Numbered from the stretch's first letter, positions 1,606 to 24,000 are shown. The stretch: 24,000 nt of DNA from Aeromonas allosaccharophila (GCF_000819685.1 NZ_CDBR01000018.1:1066-25065); one strand, 5' to 3'. Numbers and translations are program-made. The notes: generated by a model not told the origin, from the sequence alone.

Positions 1606-3756
1606 TTAGCGTTTGCGCCAGACGGTCAGCTGCGCCACCGTGTGCTGGTATTTGCGGGCGGTTTCGCGGATGACGAAAGGCACATCCCGCGGCGGGCAGT
1701 GCTCCTCGAACTCCGCCGCCAGCAGCCGTTGCAGCGCCTGATAGGTGGTGAGCGCCTCGCCATTTTCACGAATGCCGCCGAGCCAGTTGGCGGGCGGGGT
1801 ATATTCCGCCAGCCAGGTGTAGGGGCTGGTGAGCACCAGCAGGCCACCGCTGCGCAGCCGGGGAGCTATGTCCCGCAGGAAACGGGCTGGCTCCCGCAGC
1901 CGGTCGATCAGGTTGGAGGCAAGCACCAGATCGTAGTGGTCATATTTGGGTTTGAGGTTGCAGGCATCCCCCTGACTGAAGTGGATGCGCTCAGCCTGAC
2001 TCGCTCCCAGCCCGTGGCTCGACAGGCGCGCCTCGCAATACTCCACCAGTTCCCCCTCCAGCGGAATGGCGTAGCGGAAACTGTCCTGACTGGCGAGGGC
2101 CAGCGCCACATCGATGAAGCGGGCCGAGTAGTCGACTCCGTCTACATGCTGGAAGTGGCGGGCCAGTTCGAAGCTGGCGCGGCCGGTGGCACAGCCGATA
2201 TCCAGCGCCCGCTGGTGGTTGCTGCACAGCTCGCCAGCAAGATCAGCAAGCGTCTTGGCGTAGTTGGCTACCCCGAAGTGGCTCGGGCCGTACTGGAAGT
2301 CGAGGTACTGAGCGACCAGCGTGTCGGTTTCATAGGGATTCACGATAACGGGTTCCTGATAACGGGAGACCAGATAGCGGAAACCCGCATGCTGGAAGAA
2401 GTGACGCCGGAAGGCGTAACGGGATGATTTGAGCGCTTCGTTGCCTGTGCTGATCCAGCTGCCGCCCTTGATCAGGGTGTGCTTGCCATCAAAGGTGGGG
2501 GTGGAGAAGTCGTCGTAGAGCGGGTGGATTTTAAAGCCGTCGAAGCCATCGATGGCGGTGCTGGTCCACTGCCAGACATTGCCCACCAGATCGAAGAACT
2601 CCCCTTGTGGGCAGGCATCCACCGGGCAGGAGGAGGCGAAGCGGGCCAGATTGATATTGCCCGGGGCCTCCGTCCAGTCCGGCTGATCGCCGGGTACCTG
2701 CTCACGCAGCAGTTGCCACTCTGCCTCGCTCGGCAGCTGGATGGGCAGTCCGGTCTGGGCCGCCTTCCAGCGACAGAAGGCGGCCGCTTCCAGCTGGTTT
2801 ACCTCGACCGGCCAGTCCCATGGCATGGCGACCTGCTCGGTCATCAGCCGCAACTGCAGTTGCCCGGGCTTGGTGGGATCACCCACCCAGAAGGTGGGCA
2901 TCTGCGCCTTGGCGTACTGACACCAGCTCCACCCCTCTTCATCCCACCACTGTTGCTGGCCATAGCCGCCCGCCTGTACGAAGGCGAGGTACTCGGCATT
3001 GCTCACCAGCATGCGGCTGGCCTGAAACGGGGCCAGCTCGATATGGCGCTCGCCATATTCGTTGTCCCAGCCGTAGGTGGCGTCCCGCTTGCCAAGGCGC
3101 ACCTTGCCGCCGGCCATCGGCAGCAGGCTGTTGGCGGGCACCTGGTCAATACGTTGGCGTGCTTCGGTGCAGGCGGGCCAATAAGGCTGCGGTCGCACCC
3201 AGGCGAGCGGCAACTGGCGGATCAGCACGCTGGAGGTCTCGAGGTGGATGCGTTCGTGCTCTATCCCCATCAGGATCACCCAGGCCGGGCTTTGCCAGTC
3301 GATGGGCAGGGTGAGCGGCATCTGGCGAATGAAATCGCACACCAGCGAACGGACTTTGGCCCGATAGCTGCGCAGCTCGGTGACCTTGGGCCAGTCGTAG
3401 TGGGTCTCGTCCAGATCGTCCCAGCTCATCTCGTCCACCCCGATGGCGACCATGGCCTCGATGCGGGCATCCAGCCGCTGGTCGATCAGGCGCGCCGCCA
3501 GCAGCTTGTTGATAAAGAAGGCGGCGGTGTGCCCGTAGTAGAAGATGAGCGGGTGGCGCAGCGGGATCGCCTTGTTGAACCAGGCCCGCTCATCGGCCAG
3601 ACAGTCGAACAGCGAGTCGTAGAGATCGAAGGTCTGGCAAAAGTAGCCAAGCAGCTCGCGCCGTTTCTGCTCGGGGTCGCTACCGGTCAGCAACGGGGTG
3701 CGAGTCGGTGCTGGCAGACCGACGGCAGTGGCATAGAGAGGGCTTGCTTGGGTCAC
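1606..3756 (-). CDS. ovoA: 5-histidylcysteine sulfoxide synthase / methyltransferase fusion (ovothiol biosynthesis, OvoA)
   Basis: Three-domain architecture is read directly from the translation. The N-terminal DinB-like part has YYGHTAAFF and the iron-binding HxxxHxE motif (HERIHLE). The central FGE/sulfatase-modifying-like domain has GNVWQWT. The C-terminal SAM methyltransferase has motif I LDIGCATG. The ORF stays open to 3834, but GTG at 3756 has a strong AGGAG (3764-3768) 7 nt upstream, giving 716 aa. Confidence 0.85.
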   Translation of the reverse strand: MTQASPLYATAVGLPAPTRTPLLTGSDPEQKRRELLGYFCQTFDLYDSLFDCLADERAWFNKAIPLRHPLIFYYGHTAAFFINKLLAARLIDQRLDARIEAMVAIGVDEMSWDDLDETHYDWPKVTELRSYRAKVRSLVCDFIRQMPLTLPIDWQSPAWVILMGIEHERIHLETSSVLIRQLPLAWVRPQPYWPACTEARQRIDQVPANSLLPMAGGKVRLGKRDATYGWDNEYGERHIELAPFQASRMLVSNAEYLAFVQAGGYGQQQWWDEEGWSWCQYAKAQMPTFWVGDPTKPGQLQLRLMTEQVAMPWDWPVEVNQLEAAAFCRWKAAQTGLPIQLPSEAEWQLLREQVPGDQPDWTEAPGNINLARFASSCPVDACPQGEFFDLVGNVWQWTSTAIDGFDGFKIHPLYDDFSTPTFDGKHTLIKGGSWISTGNEALKSSRYAFRRHFFQHAGFRYLVSRYQEPVIVNPYETDTLVAQYLDFQYGPSHFGVANYAKTLADLAGELCSNHQRALDIGCATGRASFELARHFQHVDGVDYSARFIDVALALASQDSFRYAIPLEGELVEYCEARLSSHGLGASQAERIHFSQGDACNLKPKYDHYDLVLASNLIDRLREPARFLRDIAPRLRSGGLLVLTSPYTWLAEYTPPANWLGGIRENGEALTTYQALQRLLAAEFEEHCPPRDVPFVIRETARKYQHTVAQLTVWRKR

Positions 3757-4120
3757 GCTCTGACTCCTTGTTGGCAGTGAAGACTGACAAGACAGTGGTA
3801 ATGACATTACCGCAATAGAGAGCTTGGTACGCACGAAGTACCACTATTGGCTCAACAGATCGGTACGGCAATCAAAAATTGCCACGGGCTGTCAGCATAG
3901 TGACCGGCAGGACGGCCCGCCAACCAGCCACAAACATACCCGTTCGAGGATGGTTGTTTTCACCAACATATGGTCTAAATGACTCTCTAAATACTGAGGT
4001 TGGTGCGGGAGAAAACGGTTATTTTCTTTTGAATCATGCAGTTGATTTTTTGGCGCACGCATTGCAGAGCATGAAAACCAATTGGCCCCGGATGGCCAAT
4101 AGATAACGAGGAGAGTGGTG

Positions 4121-13627: not shown

Positions 13628-14938
13628 CTACAGAGTTAAACGCTGCGCTCTGGTGCTGAGCCCATCCAGAATCGAGTCCGCAATCTGGGCGGGAAATGTA
13701 TCTGGTAACTGCTGACGGACGGCCGAGATCACTTCATCCAGACTACTGGCCATTTCGTTTAGGATCATTTCCATTTGAACCTTTTCAAATCCAACCGCTT
13801 TGGCAGTCTGATAGAAATGGCGAGGAAATATCTGCTCTATCGCATATTTCTTGCCCTTAGTCGCGGTCAGGCCCATGGCCAGCTTTGCATCGCGTGGGTG
13901 TAGACCTCGGCCGCCAAACACTGGATAGACAGATAGGATGTCGTAAAAAGGGGTCAGGCGAAAACGCCCTTCCGGTTCAATAAAGACCGAGAAGTTCTTT
14001 GCATGGCCATCGGTGGCCGCCAGCAGCCAGAACAGCACCTGAGATTTCATGAACAGGTAGCGATCCTGTTCTGGTGTCGCAGAGCCCAGCAAGGTTTTCA
14101 TGATGTCAGTGATCCCCGGTCCTCCATGGCTCTCGTATTTCCGTGCTGACGGAACATTCAATACCTGACAGAAATCTTCTTGGGGAAGGCGCATGATCCA
14201 ACTGCGATCGGCAGCGTAACGTCTGTCGAAGCGTTCCACAGCCAGTGCTTTGACCTGGCCAACCTGCATCATGAAGCAGTGAGGTACGGGTAGACCAAAC
14301 TCCTTGGCAATCAGAGTGCAGATATATTCATTTTCTACGCTCTGGGAGAGGTCTATCGAGTAGGAGTGGCTTTCAATCTTGCCGATAGGGAGTTTGATAA
14401 TGTGGGTTGTCGGCGTTGCGTTGAGTGGCAAGTACCAACGGCCATCGAGATAGAGCAGCGCAGTCTTTTCTTGCGCCCCAGCGATAGAGATCCGGAACTC
14501 CTCTTGCTCCCTGACCATCCCCAAAGGGATTCCTGATTTGTAGCTGGTCAGGATATGCTCGAGCTCGTCATCGGAAAGTGCCTTGTAGTCGATTCGCCTG
14601 ACATCTGGAACATCGTGCCCTTCGGTAACCAGCTGTAATGCCCCTACGCTATCCTGGCCAATGCAACTTAGCAGATCGAAGGGCTGGGTTGATGCCGCTT
14701 GATAGCGTGCTACAACCCTGTTCCTCACCTCCGTATTATCTGGCAGCAGGTTGTCGAAGAAGTTATAGGCTTCATCGCCCCGGTAGGGCTGATGGCGCAA
14801 TGGCATGGAGAGTGAGATGGGACGGCTGCCTGGTTGTGCTAACCATGACCCATGGTACTGAAACTGATGGGCGCCGCTGGTAGTTTTGGTGAATGTGCCT
14901 ACCCGATAGCCGTTCATGTAGACAGCCAGATTGGCCAT
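13628..14938 (-). CDS. hipA: Type II toxin HipA (Ser/Thr kinase)
   Basis: The protein is collinear with E. coli HipA (…FFDNLLPDN…ISIAGAQEKTALL…TTHIIKLPIG…LAVERFDRR…LPQEDFCQ…KYESHGGPG…ATDGHAKNFSVFI…LTPFYDILS…). ATG at 14938 overlaps the hipB stop as TAATG. Confidence 0.9.
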   Translation of the reverse strand: MANLAVYMNGYRVGTFTKTTSGAHQFQYHGSWLAQPGSRPISLSMPLRHQPYRGDEAYNFFDNLLPDNTEVRNRVVARYQAASTQPFDLLSCIGQDSVGALQLVTEGHDVPDVRRIDYKALSDDELEHILTSYKSGIPLGMVREQEEFRISIAGAQEKTALLYLDGRWYLPLNATPTTHIIKLPIGKIESHSYSIDLSQSVENEYICTLIAKEFGLPVPHCFMMQVGQVKALAVERFDRRYAADRSWIMRLPQEDFCQVLNVPSARKYESHGGPGITDIMKTLLGSATPEQDRYLFMKSQVLFWLLAATDGHAKNFSVFIEPEGRFRLTPFYDILSVYPVFGGRGLHPRDAKLAMGLTATKGKKYAIEQIFPRHFYQTAKAVGFEKVQMEMILNEMASSLDEVISAVRQQLPDTFPAQIADSILDGLSTRAQRLTL

Positions 14939-15192
14939 TACCACTCCTCCTTCCAGCCTGATATAGGGCTGTCGGATGACTCATTGCGGGGTTTGATATC
15001 CAGTGACAACTCGAGTGCTGCGAGGATCTTGAACAGGGTCTCCAGCTTGGTGGACTCAGGGTTGAGCTCGAAGCTGGATACAGTGTCTTGCCTAATCCCC
15101 ACTTTCTCGGCCACTTTACCCTGGGAAAGCTTTTGCGAAAGCCTGGCATCCTTGATACAGGCGCTGAGCTGCTTGGCGCTGGTTACTTTCAT
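14938..15192 (-). CDS. hipB: HipB antitoxin (XRE-family HTH)
   Basis: MKVTSAKQLSACIKDARLSQKLSQGKVAEKVGIRQDTVSSFELNPESTKLETLFKILAALELSL…EEW has a Cro/C1 HTH and a terminal Trp as in E. coli HipB. There is a 1-nt stop/start overlap with hipA. The ORF is open to 15225, but ATG at 15192 fits homologues. Confidence 0.85.
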   Translation of the reverse strand: MKVTSAKQLSACIKDARLSQKLSQGKVAEKVGIRQDTVSSFELNPESTKLETLFKILAALELSLDIKPRNESSDSPISGWKEEW

Positions 15193-15223
15193 GATTCGAC
15201 TACCTGGTCGCGTGCGTTCTTTC

Positions 15224-15251
15224 AATTTACACGCTGTGACAGGTATATCAA
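15224..15251 (-). promoter_or_regulatory. Candidate sigma70 promoter of hipBA
   Basis: On the minus strand, TTGATA (15246-15251), a 16-nt spacer, and TAAATT (15224-15229). It overlaps the promoter-proximal dyad operator. Confidence 0.4.
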
Positions 15252-15361: not shown

Positions 15362-15784
15362 TCAATCAATATGGGTAGCCAACCAGTCGAGACCTTGCTC
15401 TGCAAACGTGGACAGCTGGTCGCTGTGGCCTTGAGCAATGACGCTACGGATGATCTCGGGGTCAATATTCAGATAGTCGTGCACCAGCGCATTGCGAAGG
15501 CCACTAATCTTGCGCCAGCCGATCAAGGTGTCGGGGGATAGCTCACCACGCTGGGCCAGGATTTCGAATGCCTGATAGGCATCCTGTGGGGTATGACTTG
15601 CCAGCGTTTTGGCCCAGTGTTTTGCCACTCCAATACACGCTTCGATAGAAACCTGCAGGATTCGCTCGGCGGCGCGGTACTCCAGATTGGAAAGCGCATG
15701 CTGCGCCAGAATAGCCAAGATCTCTGACAGTTCGGCCTGATAGGCTGATGCGCAAAGCGCCGATATATAGGCGTTATCGCTCAT
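15362..15784 (-). CDS. hepT: HepT-type HEPN RNase toxin (DUF86)
   Basis: Uninterrupted 140-aa ORF with the HEPN R-x4-H-x-Y motif in GLRNALVHDYLNID. There is an ATGA start/stop overlap (15781-15784) with the upstream MNT-type gene. Confidence 0.8.
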   Translation of the reverse strand: MSDNAYISALCASAYQAELSEILAILAQHALSNLEYRAAERILQVSIEACIGVAKHWAKTLASHTPQDAYQAFEILAQRGELSPDTLIGWRKISGLRNALVHDYLNIDPEIIRSVIAQGHSDQLSTFAEQGLDWLATHID

Positions 15785-16150
15785 CTCTGCACCTCCTCCT
15801 GCAAGCGTCGTCTCTCATCATGGCTATAGAGAGGACGATTGGCATCGATTACCGCAAAAGCCAGCGAGAGCGGGGCCTGATTGATATCGACGATCGAGAG
15901 TTTCCCTGCCGCCAGCCCCAGAGCTCGTTGCCACTCCAGCACCAGCAGTTCGGGCCGCAACCGGTTTTCCAGTGCAGCACCCAGGGGGCCGCTCTGTTTG
16001 ACCGGATCAAAGGCCACCGCCAGATCCTAGTCGCTAGCGGGCCCAGCCGCCCCCCTGGCACGAGAGCCGTAAAGCCAAAGTACCTGCACTTGGAGGGGGG
16101 CTGCTGGCGAGGGCGATCAGCTGGTGAAGAACATCGCTGTCAGGTTTCAT
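15781..16150 (-). pseudogene. mntA: MntA-type nucleotidyltransferase antitoxin, disrupted by a frameshift and an in-frame TAG
   Basis: ATG at 16150 gives MKPDSDVLHQLIALASSP, then enters a C6 run (plus-strand G6 at 16095-16100) and terminates at 16034-16036. The conserved core LQVQVLWLYGSRARGAAGPASD*DLAVAFDPV… is in another frame. TAG (16027-16029) sits at the middle position of the GSx10DxD motif. Only the last 78 codons, from GTG 16017, are in frame with the hepT overlap. Confidence 0.7.
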
Positions 16151-16260: not shown

Positions 16261-16269
16261 GGGGGGGGG
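16261..16269. repeat. G9 homopolymer tract
   Basis: Nine consecutive G, about 110 nt upstream of the mntA ATG on the opposite strand, in a non-coding spacer. Confidence 0.9.
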
Positions 16270-16578: not shown

Positions 16579-16633
16579 AAAATAGAAATGCTCTCCCGTA
16601 AAGGGGAGCGTCTCTGTTTTGGTCTTTTTTTTT
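16574..16633 (+). terminator. Leader terminator controlled by the RAT element
   Basis: AGACCAAAATAG (16574-16585) pairs with CTGTTTTGGTCT (16614-16625). There is an inner CTCCC/GGGAG stem, followed by a T9 run (16625-16633), 22 nt before the bglF ATG. Confidence 0.8.
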
Positions 16634-16654
16634 GCCTCAATACCGAGGAACACT

Positions 16655-20792
<4,138 letters not shown>

Positions 20793-21307: not shown

Positions 21308-21332
21308 TTTAAACAGACTGATGGGGGTTTCA

Positions 21333-21956
21333 ATGTTCATACGAGCGTATTTACGTGCATCGACTGTGGAGCAGGATGCTGAGCGGGCACGAGAGCTACT
21401 GATTGGTTTTGCTGCAGAGCATGGCCATCAGATAGCCAGTTTCTATGTGGAGAATGAGTCTGGTGCGACGTTGGACAGGCCTGAGCTTATGCGGCTGATC
21501 CGCGACGCTGCAGATCGTGACATTGTGCTGGTAGAACAGATTGCTCGTCTGGCTCGTCTCAATCAGACGGATTGGCAAACATTGAAGCAGTTGCTAGCTC
21601 AGAAACAGCTCTCCATCGTTTCTCCGGAGCTTCCGACTTCCTGGGTGGCGTTACAGGGGGACAGCCGCTCCGAGCTCACCAGCGCCATCTTGCAGGCTGT
21701 AAATGGCATGCTGCTGGATATGCTGGCAGCCGTCGCTCGCAAAGACTACGAAGATCGCCGACGCAGGCAACAGCAGGGTATTGCCAAGGCTAGGGATGAT
21801 GGGAAATATCGCGGTCGCCAGAAAGATGAAAAGAAGCGTCAGCACATCGCACAGTTGTTGAGCACCGGACACAGCTACTCGGTGATCCAGGAAATGTTGG
21901 GCTGCTCCCGCCATCTGATTTCGTGCGTGGCAAAAGAGGTCCATTCAGTAAAATAG
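21333..21956 (+). CDS. Small serine recombinase (resolvase/invertase family) with C-terminal HTH
   Basis: MFIRAYLRASTVEQD… contains the catalytic-Ser motif (Y-x-R-x-S-T-x-x-Q). It is collinear with gamma-delta resolvase through ESGATLDRPEL and VLVEQIARLARL, and has a C-terminal HTH (HSYSVIQEMLGCSRHLISCVAKE). ATG at 21333 follows a G-rich RBS. The ORF is open from 21321. Confidence 0.85.
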   Translation: MFIRAYLRASTVEQDAERARELLIGFAAEHGHQIASFYVENESGATLDRPELMRLIRDAADRDIVLVEQIARLARLNQTDWQTLKQLLAQKQLSIVSPELPTSWVALQGDSRSELTSAILQAVNGMLLDMLAAVARKDYEDRRRRQQQGIAKARDDGKYRGRQKDEKKRQHIAQLLSTGHSYSVIQEMLGCSRHLISCVAKEVHSVK

Positions 21957-22501: not shown

Positions 22502-22742
22502 TCTTGGCCTGTGCATTCAGCGGGAGCCAAGCCGTCTAACTGGCTATGGGACTAACTCAAGCGATGCCCTTCAACAAGTATTCACTACGACCTGGTTATG
22601 CCATTGCCAGACGTATCCTTGGCCAGAAGGTACGCTATCAAGAGCAGCCTCCCATGTTGCTTTATGAGTCTGAAATCAACAAAACTCGGCTGATTTTATG
22701 AGAGAATCTTGAGCAATATTGTCCCCGACCGGAAGTGTGCTC

Positions 22743-23643
22743 ATGGCAGAGATCAACAAAGCAACCCTCACCGAAGCCGACATCATCTCGAAATACCTGT
22801 TGCCTGCTATCAAGGCTGCCGGGTGGGATGACCTGACCCAGGTCCGCCAAGAGGTGAAGCTGCGGGATGGCAAAGTGGTGGTGCGCGGCCAGATGGCGGC
22901 ACGCAAGAAGGTCAAATCGGCCGATATCGTGCTCTATCACAAGATGGGCTTGCCACTGGCGGTGATCGAGGCCAAAGCCAACAAGCATGAGATTGGCAAG
23001 GGGATGCAGCAGGGGCTCGATTATGCCCGTCTGCTGGATGTGCCGTTCGTATTTGCCAGCAACGGCGATGGTTTCGTATTTCATGACAAGACCAATCCGG
23101 CCAAGCTGGAATCCGAGATCGCGCTGGAGGACTTCCCCAGCCCGGGCCAGCTTTGGGACAAACTCTGCACCTGGAAGGGTTACACCCAGGCACAGTTGCC
23201 TGTCATCAGTCAGGACTATTACTCGGATGGCAGCGGCAAATCTCCCCGCTATTACCAGCTGCAGGCCATCAACAAGACCGTAGAAGCCATCTCGAAAGAT
23301 GAGGATCGGGTATTGCTGGTGATGGCCACCGGCACCGGCAAGACCTACACCGCATTCCAGATCATCTGGCGTTTGTGGAAGGCGGGCGCCAAGAAGCGCA
23401 TCCTGTTTCTGGCCGATCGCAACATTCTGGTAGATCAAACCAAGATCAATGATTTTCAGCCCTTTGGCTCGGCCATGACCAAGGTCACCGGACGCACGAT
23501 CGATCCTGCCTATGAGATCCACCTTGCCCTCTATCAGGCGCTCACCGGGCCGGAAGAGTCGCAGAAAGCCTTCAAGCAGGTCTCACCCTACTTCTTCGAC
23601 CTGATCGTGGTGGATGAGTGCCATCGGGGCAGCGCCGCCGAAG
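22743..23643 (+). pseudogene. hsdR: Type I restriction endonuclease R subunit (HsdR), N-terminal 300 codons, truncated by an IS insertion
   Basis: [28 protein letters not shown]… has a PD-(D/E)xK nuclease core (ADIVLY…LAVIEAKA), helicase motif I (VMATGTGKT) and motif II ([12 protein letters not shown]). Homology ends at about 23643, where the IS inverted repeat begins. The frame then reads 14 IS-derived codons to a stop at 23687. Confidence 0.85.
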
Positions 23644-24000
23644 TGAATCGCCCCCAGTTCCCTAGACACCTCACAGCCTTAAAATGAGGCAACTATTGGA
23701 GGTGTTATGACCCGTCAGCGTTATCCAGAAACATTCAAAATCGAAGCCGTTAAACAAATCACCGAGCGCGGACGGCCGGTGGCTGACGTTGCACGCGCCC
23801 TTGGGGTATCCAGCCACAGTCTGTATGCCTGGCTCAGGCAGTACGGTAAGCCTGCTGACCAGCAGCTCGAAGAGTCTGCCTTGCAAGCCGAGATCCGCCG
23901 CCTGAAAACTGAACTGCGCCAGATCACCGAGGAGCGCAACATCCTAAAGGAGGCCGCCGCGTACTTTGCCAGCGAGTCAAGGAAAGGTACGCGTTCATAA
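23644..24000 (+). mobile_element. IS3-family insertion sequence, left end (continues beyond window)
   Basis: The terminal sequence TGAATCGCCCCCAGTTCCCTAGACACC starts with the TG typical of IS3-family inverted repeats. It is followed 63 nt later by orfA, and it interrupts hsdR. Confidence 0.8.
23707..24000 (+). CDS. IS3-family transposase OrfA (HTH / leucine-zipper protein)
   Basis: MTRQRYPETFKIEAVKQITERGRPVADVARALGVSSHSLYAWLRQYGK… followed by a coiled LKTELRQITEERNILKEAAAYFA, the standard IS3 OrfA layout. GGAGG lies upstream. The stop is at 23998-24000. Confidence 0.85.
   Translation: MTRQRYPETFKIEAVKQITERGRPVADVARALGVSSHSLYAWLRQYGKPADQQLEESALQAEIRRLKTELRQITEERNILKEAAAYFASESRKGTRS

Follow-up and report, generated by a model that had tools for sequence, protein, structure and literature searches.

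The closest described relatives of the locus reported here are two-gene toxin-antitoxin (TA) systems in which the HEPN RNase toxin HepT is paired with the adenylyltransferase antitoxin MntA. The type VII prototype is the HepT/MntA pair of Shewanella oneidensis (SO_3166/SO_3165; PDB 5YEP, 6M6U, and 7BXO; PMC7641770). In characterised systems, the RX4HXY motif of HepT contains the catalytic Arg and His and the Tyr that is AMPylated by MntA, and the GSX10DXD motif of MntA is essential for both AMPylation and neutralisation (PMC7641770). In the HEPN/MNT systems solved from Aphanizomenon flos-aquae (PDB 7AE2 and 7AE9) and Legionella pneumophila (PDB 8XEH; PMC11586414), HEPN is a dimer with helix alpha1 at the interface, and in the L. 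pneumophila HEPN structure alpha1 adds to the dimer interface and hydrogen-bonds the Tyr loop (PMC11586414). The C-terminal helix of the MNT protein docks on HEPN in A. flos-aquae; the L. pneumophila MNT, a naturally short and catalytically intact enzyme, works without such a helix. Here, an mntA-hepT locus was analysed at positions 15362-16150, on the minus strand, of a 24,000-nucleotide (nt) stretch of Aeromonas allosaccharophila DNA (NZ_CDBR01000018.1:1066-25065), referred to below as the window. The locus is probably a degenerating type VII TA module whose HepT product is inactive or attenuated. The system itself is already known, and the present locus is an ordinary gene relic, a copy that has become a pseudogene and no new variant. 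As a typical class I HEPN/MNT (HepT/MntA) system with RX4HXY and GSX10DXD motifs, the intact ancestor would be expected to work by poly-AMPylation of the Tyr beside the RNase motif.

The mntA and hepT genes were adjacent and co-oriented on the minus strand with mntA upstream, and this gene order was kept in all related loci. The two-gene architecture, the RX4HXY and GSX10DXD motifs, and the HepT fold were shared with the S. oneidensis prototype. In contrast, the window HepT was only approximately 24% identical to S. oneidensis HepT and belonged to a different subfamily. A sequence search of solved structures likewise returned only distant relatives, S. oneidensis HepT at 35 bits and A. flos-aquae MNT at 25 bits. 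The intact pairs of Aeromonas fluvialis LMG 24681 (L005), Aeromonas bivalvium (L008), and Aeromonas sobria (L009) (P0009/P0007 and P0124) were found to be orthologous to the window pair, with 85-89% protein identity in HepT, 82-84% in MntA, and the motifs SDWDLAV and RNALVHDY. Unlike the window copy, the intact Aeromonas MntA proteins were 144-149 amino acids (aa) long and had a long C-terminal helix, and the intact HepT proteins were 142 aa long with IGALRISLSR in alpha1. Judged by DNA alignment with the intact loci of A. fluvialis (L005), an Aeromonas metagenome-assembled genome (L007), A. bivalvium (L008), and A. sobria (L009), the window locus carries five lesions in all, three in mntA and two in hepT. 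A partial HepT of the intact Aeromonas type (P0243) was also found filed under Klebsiella pneumoniae (HHY0818981.1, a 1023-nt contig); this record is probably a contamination or a transferred fragment.

The hepT open reading frame (ORF; 15362-15784, minus strand) encodes a HEPN RNase toxin of the type VII HepT/MntA family, and the R-x4-H-x-Y motif, RNALVHDY at residues 97-104, can be read directly from the sequence at 15473-15496 on the same strand. A Shine-Dalgarno sequence, GGAGG, was located 7 nt 5' of the ATG. An earlier note on this DNA had described an uninterrupted 140-codon ORF with this motif, and the coordinates were confirmed; the product scored 91.8 bits with PF01934 (cut-off 23.5) and 92.8 bits with NF047751, HepT_toxin (cut-off 60). 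The same note took this HepT to be intact, which did not hold, because the ORF is open only since a window-specific insertion of two nucleotides (TA) offsets an older 8-nt deletion, leaving codons 7-14 out of frame and two residues missing. The deletion, common to four sister lineages, removed GTCGCGCT from between CAGCCT and ATCAGG (junction at 15739-15742, minus strand). The insertion restored the frame within a (TA)3 tract at 15764-15769 (minus strand), where DNA alignments gave GCCTATATATCGG in the window compared to GCCTATATCGG, (TA)2, in L004, L085-L088, L005, L007, L008, and L009. It sits 24 nt upstream of the deletion, and the net change is -6 nt with the frame open. The resulting out-of-frame scar (15743-15766, minus strand), visible in both DNA and protein alignments, lies midway along helix alpha1, where eight codons, ISALCASA, stand for the ten that encode IGALRISLSR in the family. 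Colinearity with the alpha1 segment of the subfamily, YIxALRxSLSRYxAEL, is lost at these codons.

The window HepT was 140 aa long compared to 142 aa in most of the homologue clusters listed, and the identical protein was found under three NCBI protein accessions, all from A. allosaccharophila. Its public label (WP_042656124.1) is HepT family toxin or DUF86-domain protein, with no mention of the scar. Generic Pfam and NCBIfam scores were tried as a measure of damage to HepT and proved uninformative (92.2 bits for the intact P0124 and 91.8 bits for the window HepT), since these profiles miss alpha1 in this subfamily and are blind to the scar. A subfamily hidden Markov model (HMM) was therefore needed, and it was built from 46 HepT homologues and used to score 48 sequences. 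The window HepT had the lowest score of the 48, 263.6 bits, and the score rose by 18.7 to 282.3 bits when the ten family residues were put back. It deviated at eight columns that were at least 90% conserved, compared to a family median of one and a maximum of nine, and it carried L12A, R14A, R29H, and F125S at positions that were invariant in the 46 other aligned homologues. An AlphaFold2 (AF2) model of the window HepT had six helices in the HEPN helical-bundle fold with a predicted local distance difference test (pLDDT) value of 77, although AF2 is insensitive to local scrambling and the modelled fold is no proof that the scarred protein folds. Foldseek aligned the model to the S. oneidensis HepT chains 5yep, 6m6u, and 7bxo with template modelling (TM) scores of 0.72-0.75. 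The lowest pLDDT of the model fell in helix alpha1 (residues 3-28). From these comparisons, we infer that the scarred HepT is probably inactive or strongly attenuated, because in solved HepT homologues alpha1 helps to build the dimer interface by the Tyr loop.

Three-frame translations of the mntA pseudogene (15781-16150, minus strand) revealed a frameshift, a nonsense codon, and a 3' deletion. Translation from the ATG at 16150 gives MKPDSDVLHQLIALASSP and, beyond a C6 run at 16095-16100, ends at a stop codon at 16034-16036. In the next frame, LWLYGSRARGAAGPASD is followed by a TAG stop codon at 16027-16029 and DLAVAFD, so that the G-S-x10-D-x-D motif (16024-16068, minus strand) lies in the shifted frame with TAG in the place of a conserved Trp codon, TGG. 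Both breaks in the frame, at C6 and within D-x-D, had been described in the earlier note and were confirmed; the third lesion, deletion of the tail, had been missed. The note ascribed the frameshift to an extra C. A net +1 was indeed found in DNA alignments at 16091-16100 (minus strand), in the C6 run and the following T ahead of the G-S motif (CAGCAGCCCCCCTCCAAGTG in the window compared to CAACAGCAACCC-CCAGGTG in the intact L005 and L007), but T16094 may be the extra base: its removal, instead of that of a C, gave SSPPQVQV, nearer to the family's xPQVQV. A homopolymer slip is not the only reading of the +1, and an extra C need not be invoked. Nor does TAG replace a former Tyr codon (TAT), as had been supposed; the codon was TGG in L005-L009, and intact homologues read SDWDLAV.

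DNA alignments placed the junction of the third mntA lesion at 15785-15789 (minus strand). The C-terminal tail, RIMSQMELGY..., is deleted by 72 nt relative to the 144-aa type and by 77 nt relative to the 149-aa type, and mntA of the intact relatives extends 22-27 codons beyond the window copy. This tail was conserved out to homologues in Shewanella and Methylococcaceae. In an AlphaFold model of the intact P0007 (pLDDT 87), the C-terminal helix covered residues 112-140; the window copy keeps residues up to approximately 122 and loses those from approximately 123 to 144. The same deletion created the ATGA overlap between mntA and hepT. The earlier note had regarded this overlap as the normal operon layout, and the overlap is present, but it is a by-product of the deletion and the intact relatives differ, with a junction of TAGAGATG (...GAGTAGAGATG) or an 8-nt overlap.

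That the shifted-frame core is an MNT domain, a point for which a failed profile alignment had been named beforehand as a possible refutation, was borne out by profile matches of the repaired MntA translation: 49.5 bits with PF18765 (Polbeta), 28.5 bits with PF01909 (NTP_transf_2), and 59.6 bits with NF047752 (MntA_antitoxin), the last against a cut-off of 60 and with X scored at the stop. The repaired MntA was 83-84% identical to the intact 144-149 aa Aeromonas MntA proteins. No uninterrupted ORF for GSX10DXD was present in the window mntA, with the +1 before G-S and TAG inside D-x-D. The antitoxin gene is unquestionably dead, and the window mntA cannot make an adenylyltransferase. The 78-codon remnant ORF from a GTG at 16017 (15781-16017, minus strand), which ends at the ATGA overlap and had been reported to stay in frame with hepT, was confirmed. 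Strand 1 is missing from it, as are the G-S and D-x-D motifs and the greater part of the C-terminal helix, and it scored 15.4 bits with PF18765, under the cut-off. The remnant is deposited as a "hypothetical protein" (WP_208597748.1) and was found on five contigs. The precedent of the short L. pneumophila MNT does not rescue it, because the remnant is also without the catalytic motifs.

Related loci with the same clade-specific substitutions were found in four sister lineages: L004 (Logan run ERR14207156), L085 (GCA_033691125.1), L086 (JGI metagenome 3300060288), and L087 (ENA ERZ27272093). In a scan of genome contigs that covered a single genome of each species, no A. allosaccharophila locus was retrieved. 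The 8-nt hepT deletion was present in all four sister lineages and the TA insertion in none of them; their hepT was frameshifted, and only C-terminal fragments of 88-122 aa were called. The TA insertion was confined to the window lineage, and its gain on the window branch requires one event by parsimony, compared to three if TA was present in the ancestor. TAG and the mntA tail deletion were common to the window, L004, L085, and L086. Moreover, L004, L085, and L086 carried a 70-nt deletion of the G-S motif, and L085 and L086 a second 8-nt hepT deletion. The L087 contig (1-570) starts inside the mntA tail; it has the hepT deletion and keeps the tail, with a 6-nt tail deletion of its own, which suggests that damage to the toxin preceded loss of the antitoxin tail. 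Upstream of mntA, an intergenic C9 run (minus strand) at 16261-16269 was C7 in L085 and L086, a homopolymer length polymorphism. In L088 (1-717; ENA ERZ27260032, P0246), a 142-aa HepT, of the A. fluvialis type and with an intact ORF, shared CAC (His120) and TCC (Ser125) with the window, and all other relatives had Tyr120 and Phe125. This sharing suggests a short recombination tract or homoplasy.

The ratio of nonsynonymous to synonymous substitution rates (dN/dS) between intact orthologues was 0.02-0.2 for both genes. In the lesion-bearing clade, parsimony counts of nonsynonymous to synonymous changes were 9:1 in hepT outside the scar and 7:1 in the mntA remnant. The probability of at least 9 nonsynonymous changes out of 10 in hepT was found to be 2e-5 at omega = 0.1 and 0.27 at omega = 1. 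This pattern in the hepT/mntA clade is consistent with neutral decay under relaxed constraint, and purifying selection on both partners was not found.

The degeneration of the module may have taken three steps. By parsimony, the 8-nt deletion would have come first, frameshifting hepT near codon 15 and killing the toxin. As the lesions common to the window and sister lineages show, mntA decayed, through the change of TGG to TAG in D-W-D and the 72-77 nt deletion of the C-terminal helix, which we propose occurred because there was no toxin left to neutralise; a +1 frameshift in the window lineage, or in sister lineages the 70-nt deletion that took out the G-S motif, would have followed. Lastly, and in the window lineage only, the +2 TA reopened the hepT frame 24 nt upstream of the old deletion. 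The predicted product is a 140-aa HepT that keeps RX4HXY and has a first helix with eight out-of-frame residues and two residues short. Cells would tolerate the hepT ORF without MntA because HepT is inactive or strongly attenuated, and the locus at present would do nothing and drift neutrally.

Several points weigh against this account. The catalytic motif of HepT, helices 2-6, and a good Shine-Dalgarno sequence are all intact, so residual RNase activity is possible, and four other aligned homologues of unchecked status also deviate at eight or nine conserved columns, so that the count by itself is not decisive. The toxin-first order comes solely from L087, a short metagenomic contig that could be chimeric. 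On the window branch by itself, the hepT count was 3:1 (P=0.05-0.17), and four substitutions are too few to reject purifying selection. Two of the three window-branch changes, Y120H and F125S, are also found in the ORF-intact P0246/L088 and may be polymorphism or a recombination patch rather than decay. The restoration of the hepT frame could in principle have been selected. If so, the insertion would have brought a HEPN RNase back to life, with its first helix remodelled, once the antitoxin had already degenerated, and the enzyme would now act as an antitoxin-independent RNase, attenuated or differently regulated, for example as a stress or phage-defence effector; we give this only a slim chance.

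The degenerating module with a damaged HepT also has to be set against the alternatives that the earlier note offered for what it saw as a paradox, an active orphan toxin beside a dead antitoxin. The sister lineages suggest that hepT was frameshifted before or along with the decay of mntA, and the clade substitutions look neutral, both of which speak against an active orphan toxin; with HepT probably damaged, no neutraliser is required. That the 140-aa HepT is an active RNase held in check in trans by a paralogous MntA elsewhere in the genome is unlikely. It is true that RX4HXY with its acceptor Tyr is intact and that other MntA/HepT subfamilies occur in Aeromonas (MntA clusters P0057-P0059 were 65-70% identical and the Aeromonas australiensis HepT, L078, 45%). 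However, no MNT-domain protein was found among the 24 scanned ORFs of the window, hepT is frameshifted in sister lineages of a neutrally evolving clade, and the scar falls in alpha1, on which the MNT C-terminal helix also docks in solved systems. An active but silent toxin, with the operon untranscribed or hepT untranslated as coupling to mntA was lost, is doubtful as well. Since the upstream region hardly differs from that of intact loci, the native promoter has probably been kept, and hepT has its own strong Shine-Dalgarno sequence; silence would also leave the scar and the neutral substitution pattern unexplained, even though premature mntA stops could cause polarity and no sigma-70-like promoter turned up immediately 5' of mntA in a crude consensus scan. 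As proof of silence, the promoter and terminator scan was set aside, being too crude and yielding nothing useful upstream of mntA. Silence of HepT nevertheless came nearest among the four options of the earlier note, but it is better put as damage to HepT itself.

The remaining two options fared worse. Binding or sequestration of HepT by the 78-aa remnant, without AMPylation, is highly improbable, since the helix that docks in other HepT/MntA systems according to the literature is missing, with two-thirds of the C-terminal helix absent, and MntA-HepT binding is weak even with intact proteins (PMC7641770). In favour of this option, the remnant ORF lies in phase and runs to the ATGA overlap, AGGA is found 7 nt 5' of its GTG, and four lineages have kept the ORF. 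However, its persistence has no link to a live toxin, as lineages with a frameshifted hepT have kept it just as well, and four of the nonsynonymous changes in its 7:1 count lie on the window branch. The last option, that mntA is really intact and its frameshift and stop are homopolymer or assembly errors, has next to no chance. One lesion does lie at a C6 run, where length errors arise easily. In contrast, a 939-nt region was identical in the Logan assemblies of runs ERR11042444 and ERR11042429 and in a further NCBI contig, JBSTXZ010000027.1 (GCA_054052725.1), whose match to the window spans 6423 nt. Since the lesions recur base for base in this contig and both independently assembled runs, random sequencing errors can be dismissed as their source; the second refuting condition named beforehand, a C5 run with a sense codon at 16027-16029, failed as well. 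Moreover, a length error could not account for TAG, a substitution that also occurs in lineages approximately 3% divergent; the tail deletion is likewise common to sister lineages, and calls of the 78-aa remnant come from five contigs.

In the A. allosaccharophila chromosome, the relic was flanked by hipBA (13628-15225) and by a bgl-type operon of phosphotransferase system (PTS), glycoside hydrolase family 1 (GH1), and BglG genes (16619-20792). The hipB (HTH_3) and hipA (Couple_hipA plus HipA_C, 438 aa) genes lie directly downstream of hepT on the minus strand and are apparently intact. They were syntenic with mntA/hepT in every lesion-bearing lineage, and conserved intergenic sequence 3' of hepT in A. 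fluvialis L005 suggests that hipBA follows there as well. The region thus looks like two neighbouring TA modules, hipBA alive and mntA/hepT dead. Further away, a type I restriction R-subunit ORF of 322 aa (22719-24000, plus strand) covered only positions 1-300 of the 807-position REase_I profile (567 bits), and an IS3-type transposase OrfA (PF01527, 69.5 bits) begins 20 nt after this hsdR ORF. hsdR appears to be cut by the insertion sequence, as a second decayed defence gene of the window. A serine recombinase/resolvase (PF00239 plus a helix-turn-helix domain; 21321-21956, plus strand) separates the bgl operon from the disrupted hsdR, and its position hints at a mobile or once-mobile segment. 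The opposite flank of the window contained efflux and metabolic genes. On the minus strand at 1606-3834, a 742-aa protein was found to fuse DinB_2, FGE-sulfatase, and methyltransferase domains, a layout that we take to be the OvoA-type 5-histidylcysteine sulfoxide synthase architecture of ovothiol biosynthesis. The description of the surroundings as a defence-type island was only loosely apt: hipBA adjoins the relic and a disrupted hsdR is in the window, but the bgl operon intervenes before the resolvase and hsdR, and the other flank is efflux and metabolism. PADLOC gave no HepT match and only weak MntA matches to the candidate system PDC-S09, so assignment to a specific defence system is unsupported.

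Degenerate and orphaned chromosomal TA loci carry frameshifts, nonsense codons, and small deletions, and toxin inactivation frees the antitoxin from selection. Compared to this general course of TA decay, what is uncommon here is that the toxin frame was reopened by a compensating +2 after the antitoxin had decayed. The five lineages form a small example of the decay of a TA module, with a toxin-first order suggested by one contig and an ORF reopened by a compensating indel. They also carry a caution, since an open frame with an intact catalytic motif is not the same as an intact gene: reading at the level of motifs gave an apparent orphan-toxin paradox, which disappeared because of the comparison with orthologues. 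The locus could serve as a test case for pseudogene callers. If the scarred HepT were active, alpha1 would be dispensable for HEPN toxicity and the question would arise of how the cell tolerates HepT; and if the reopening of the frame had been selected, the locus would be a natural example of a toxin domesticated out of a dead TA module.

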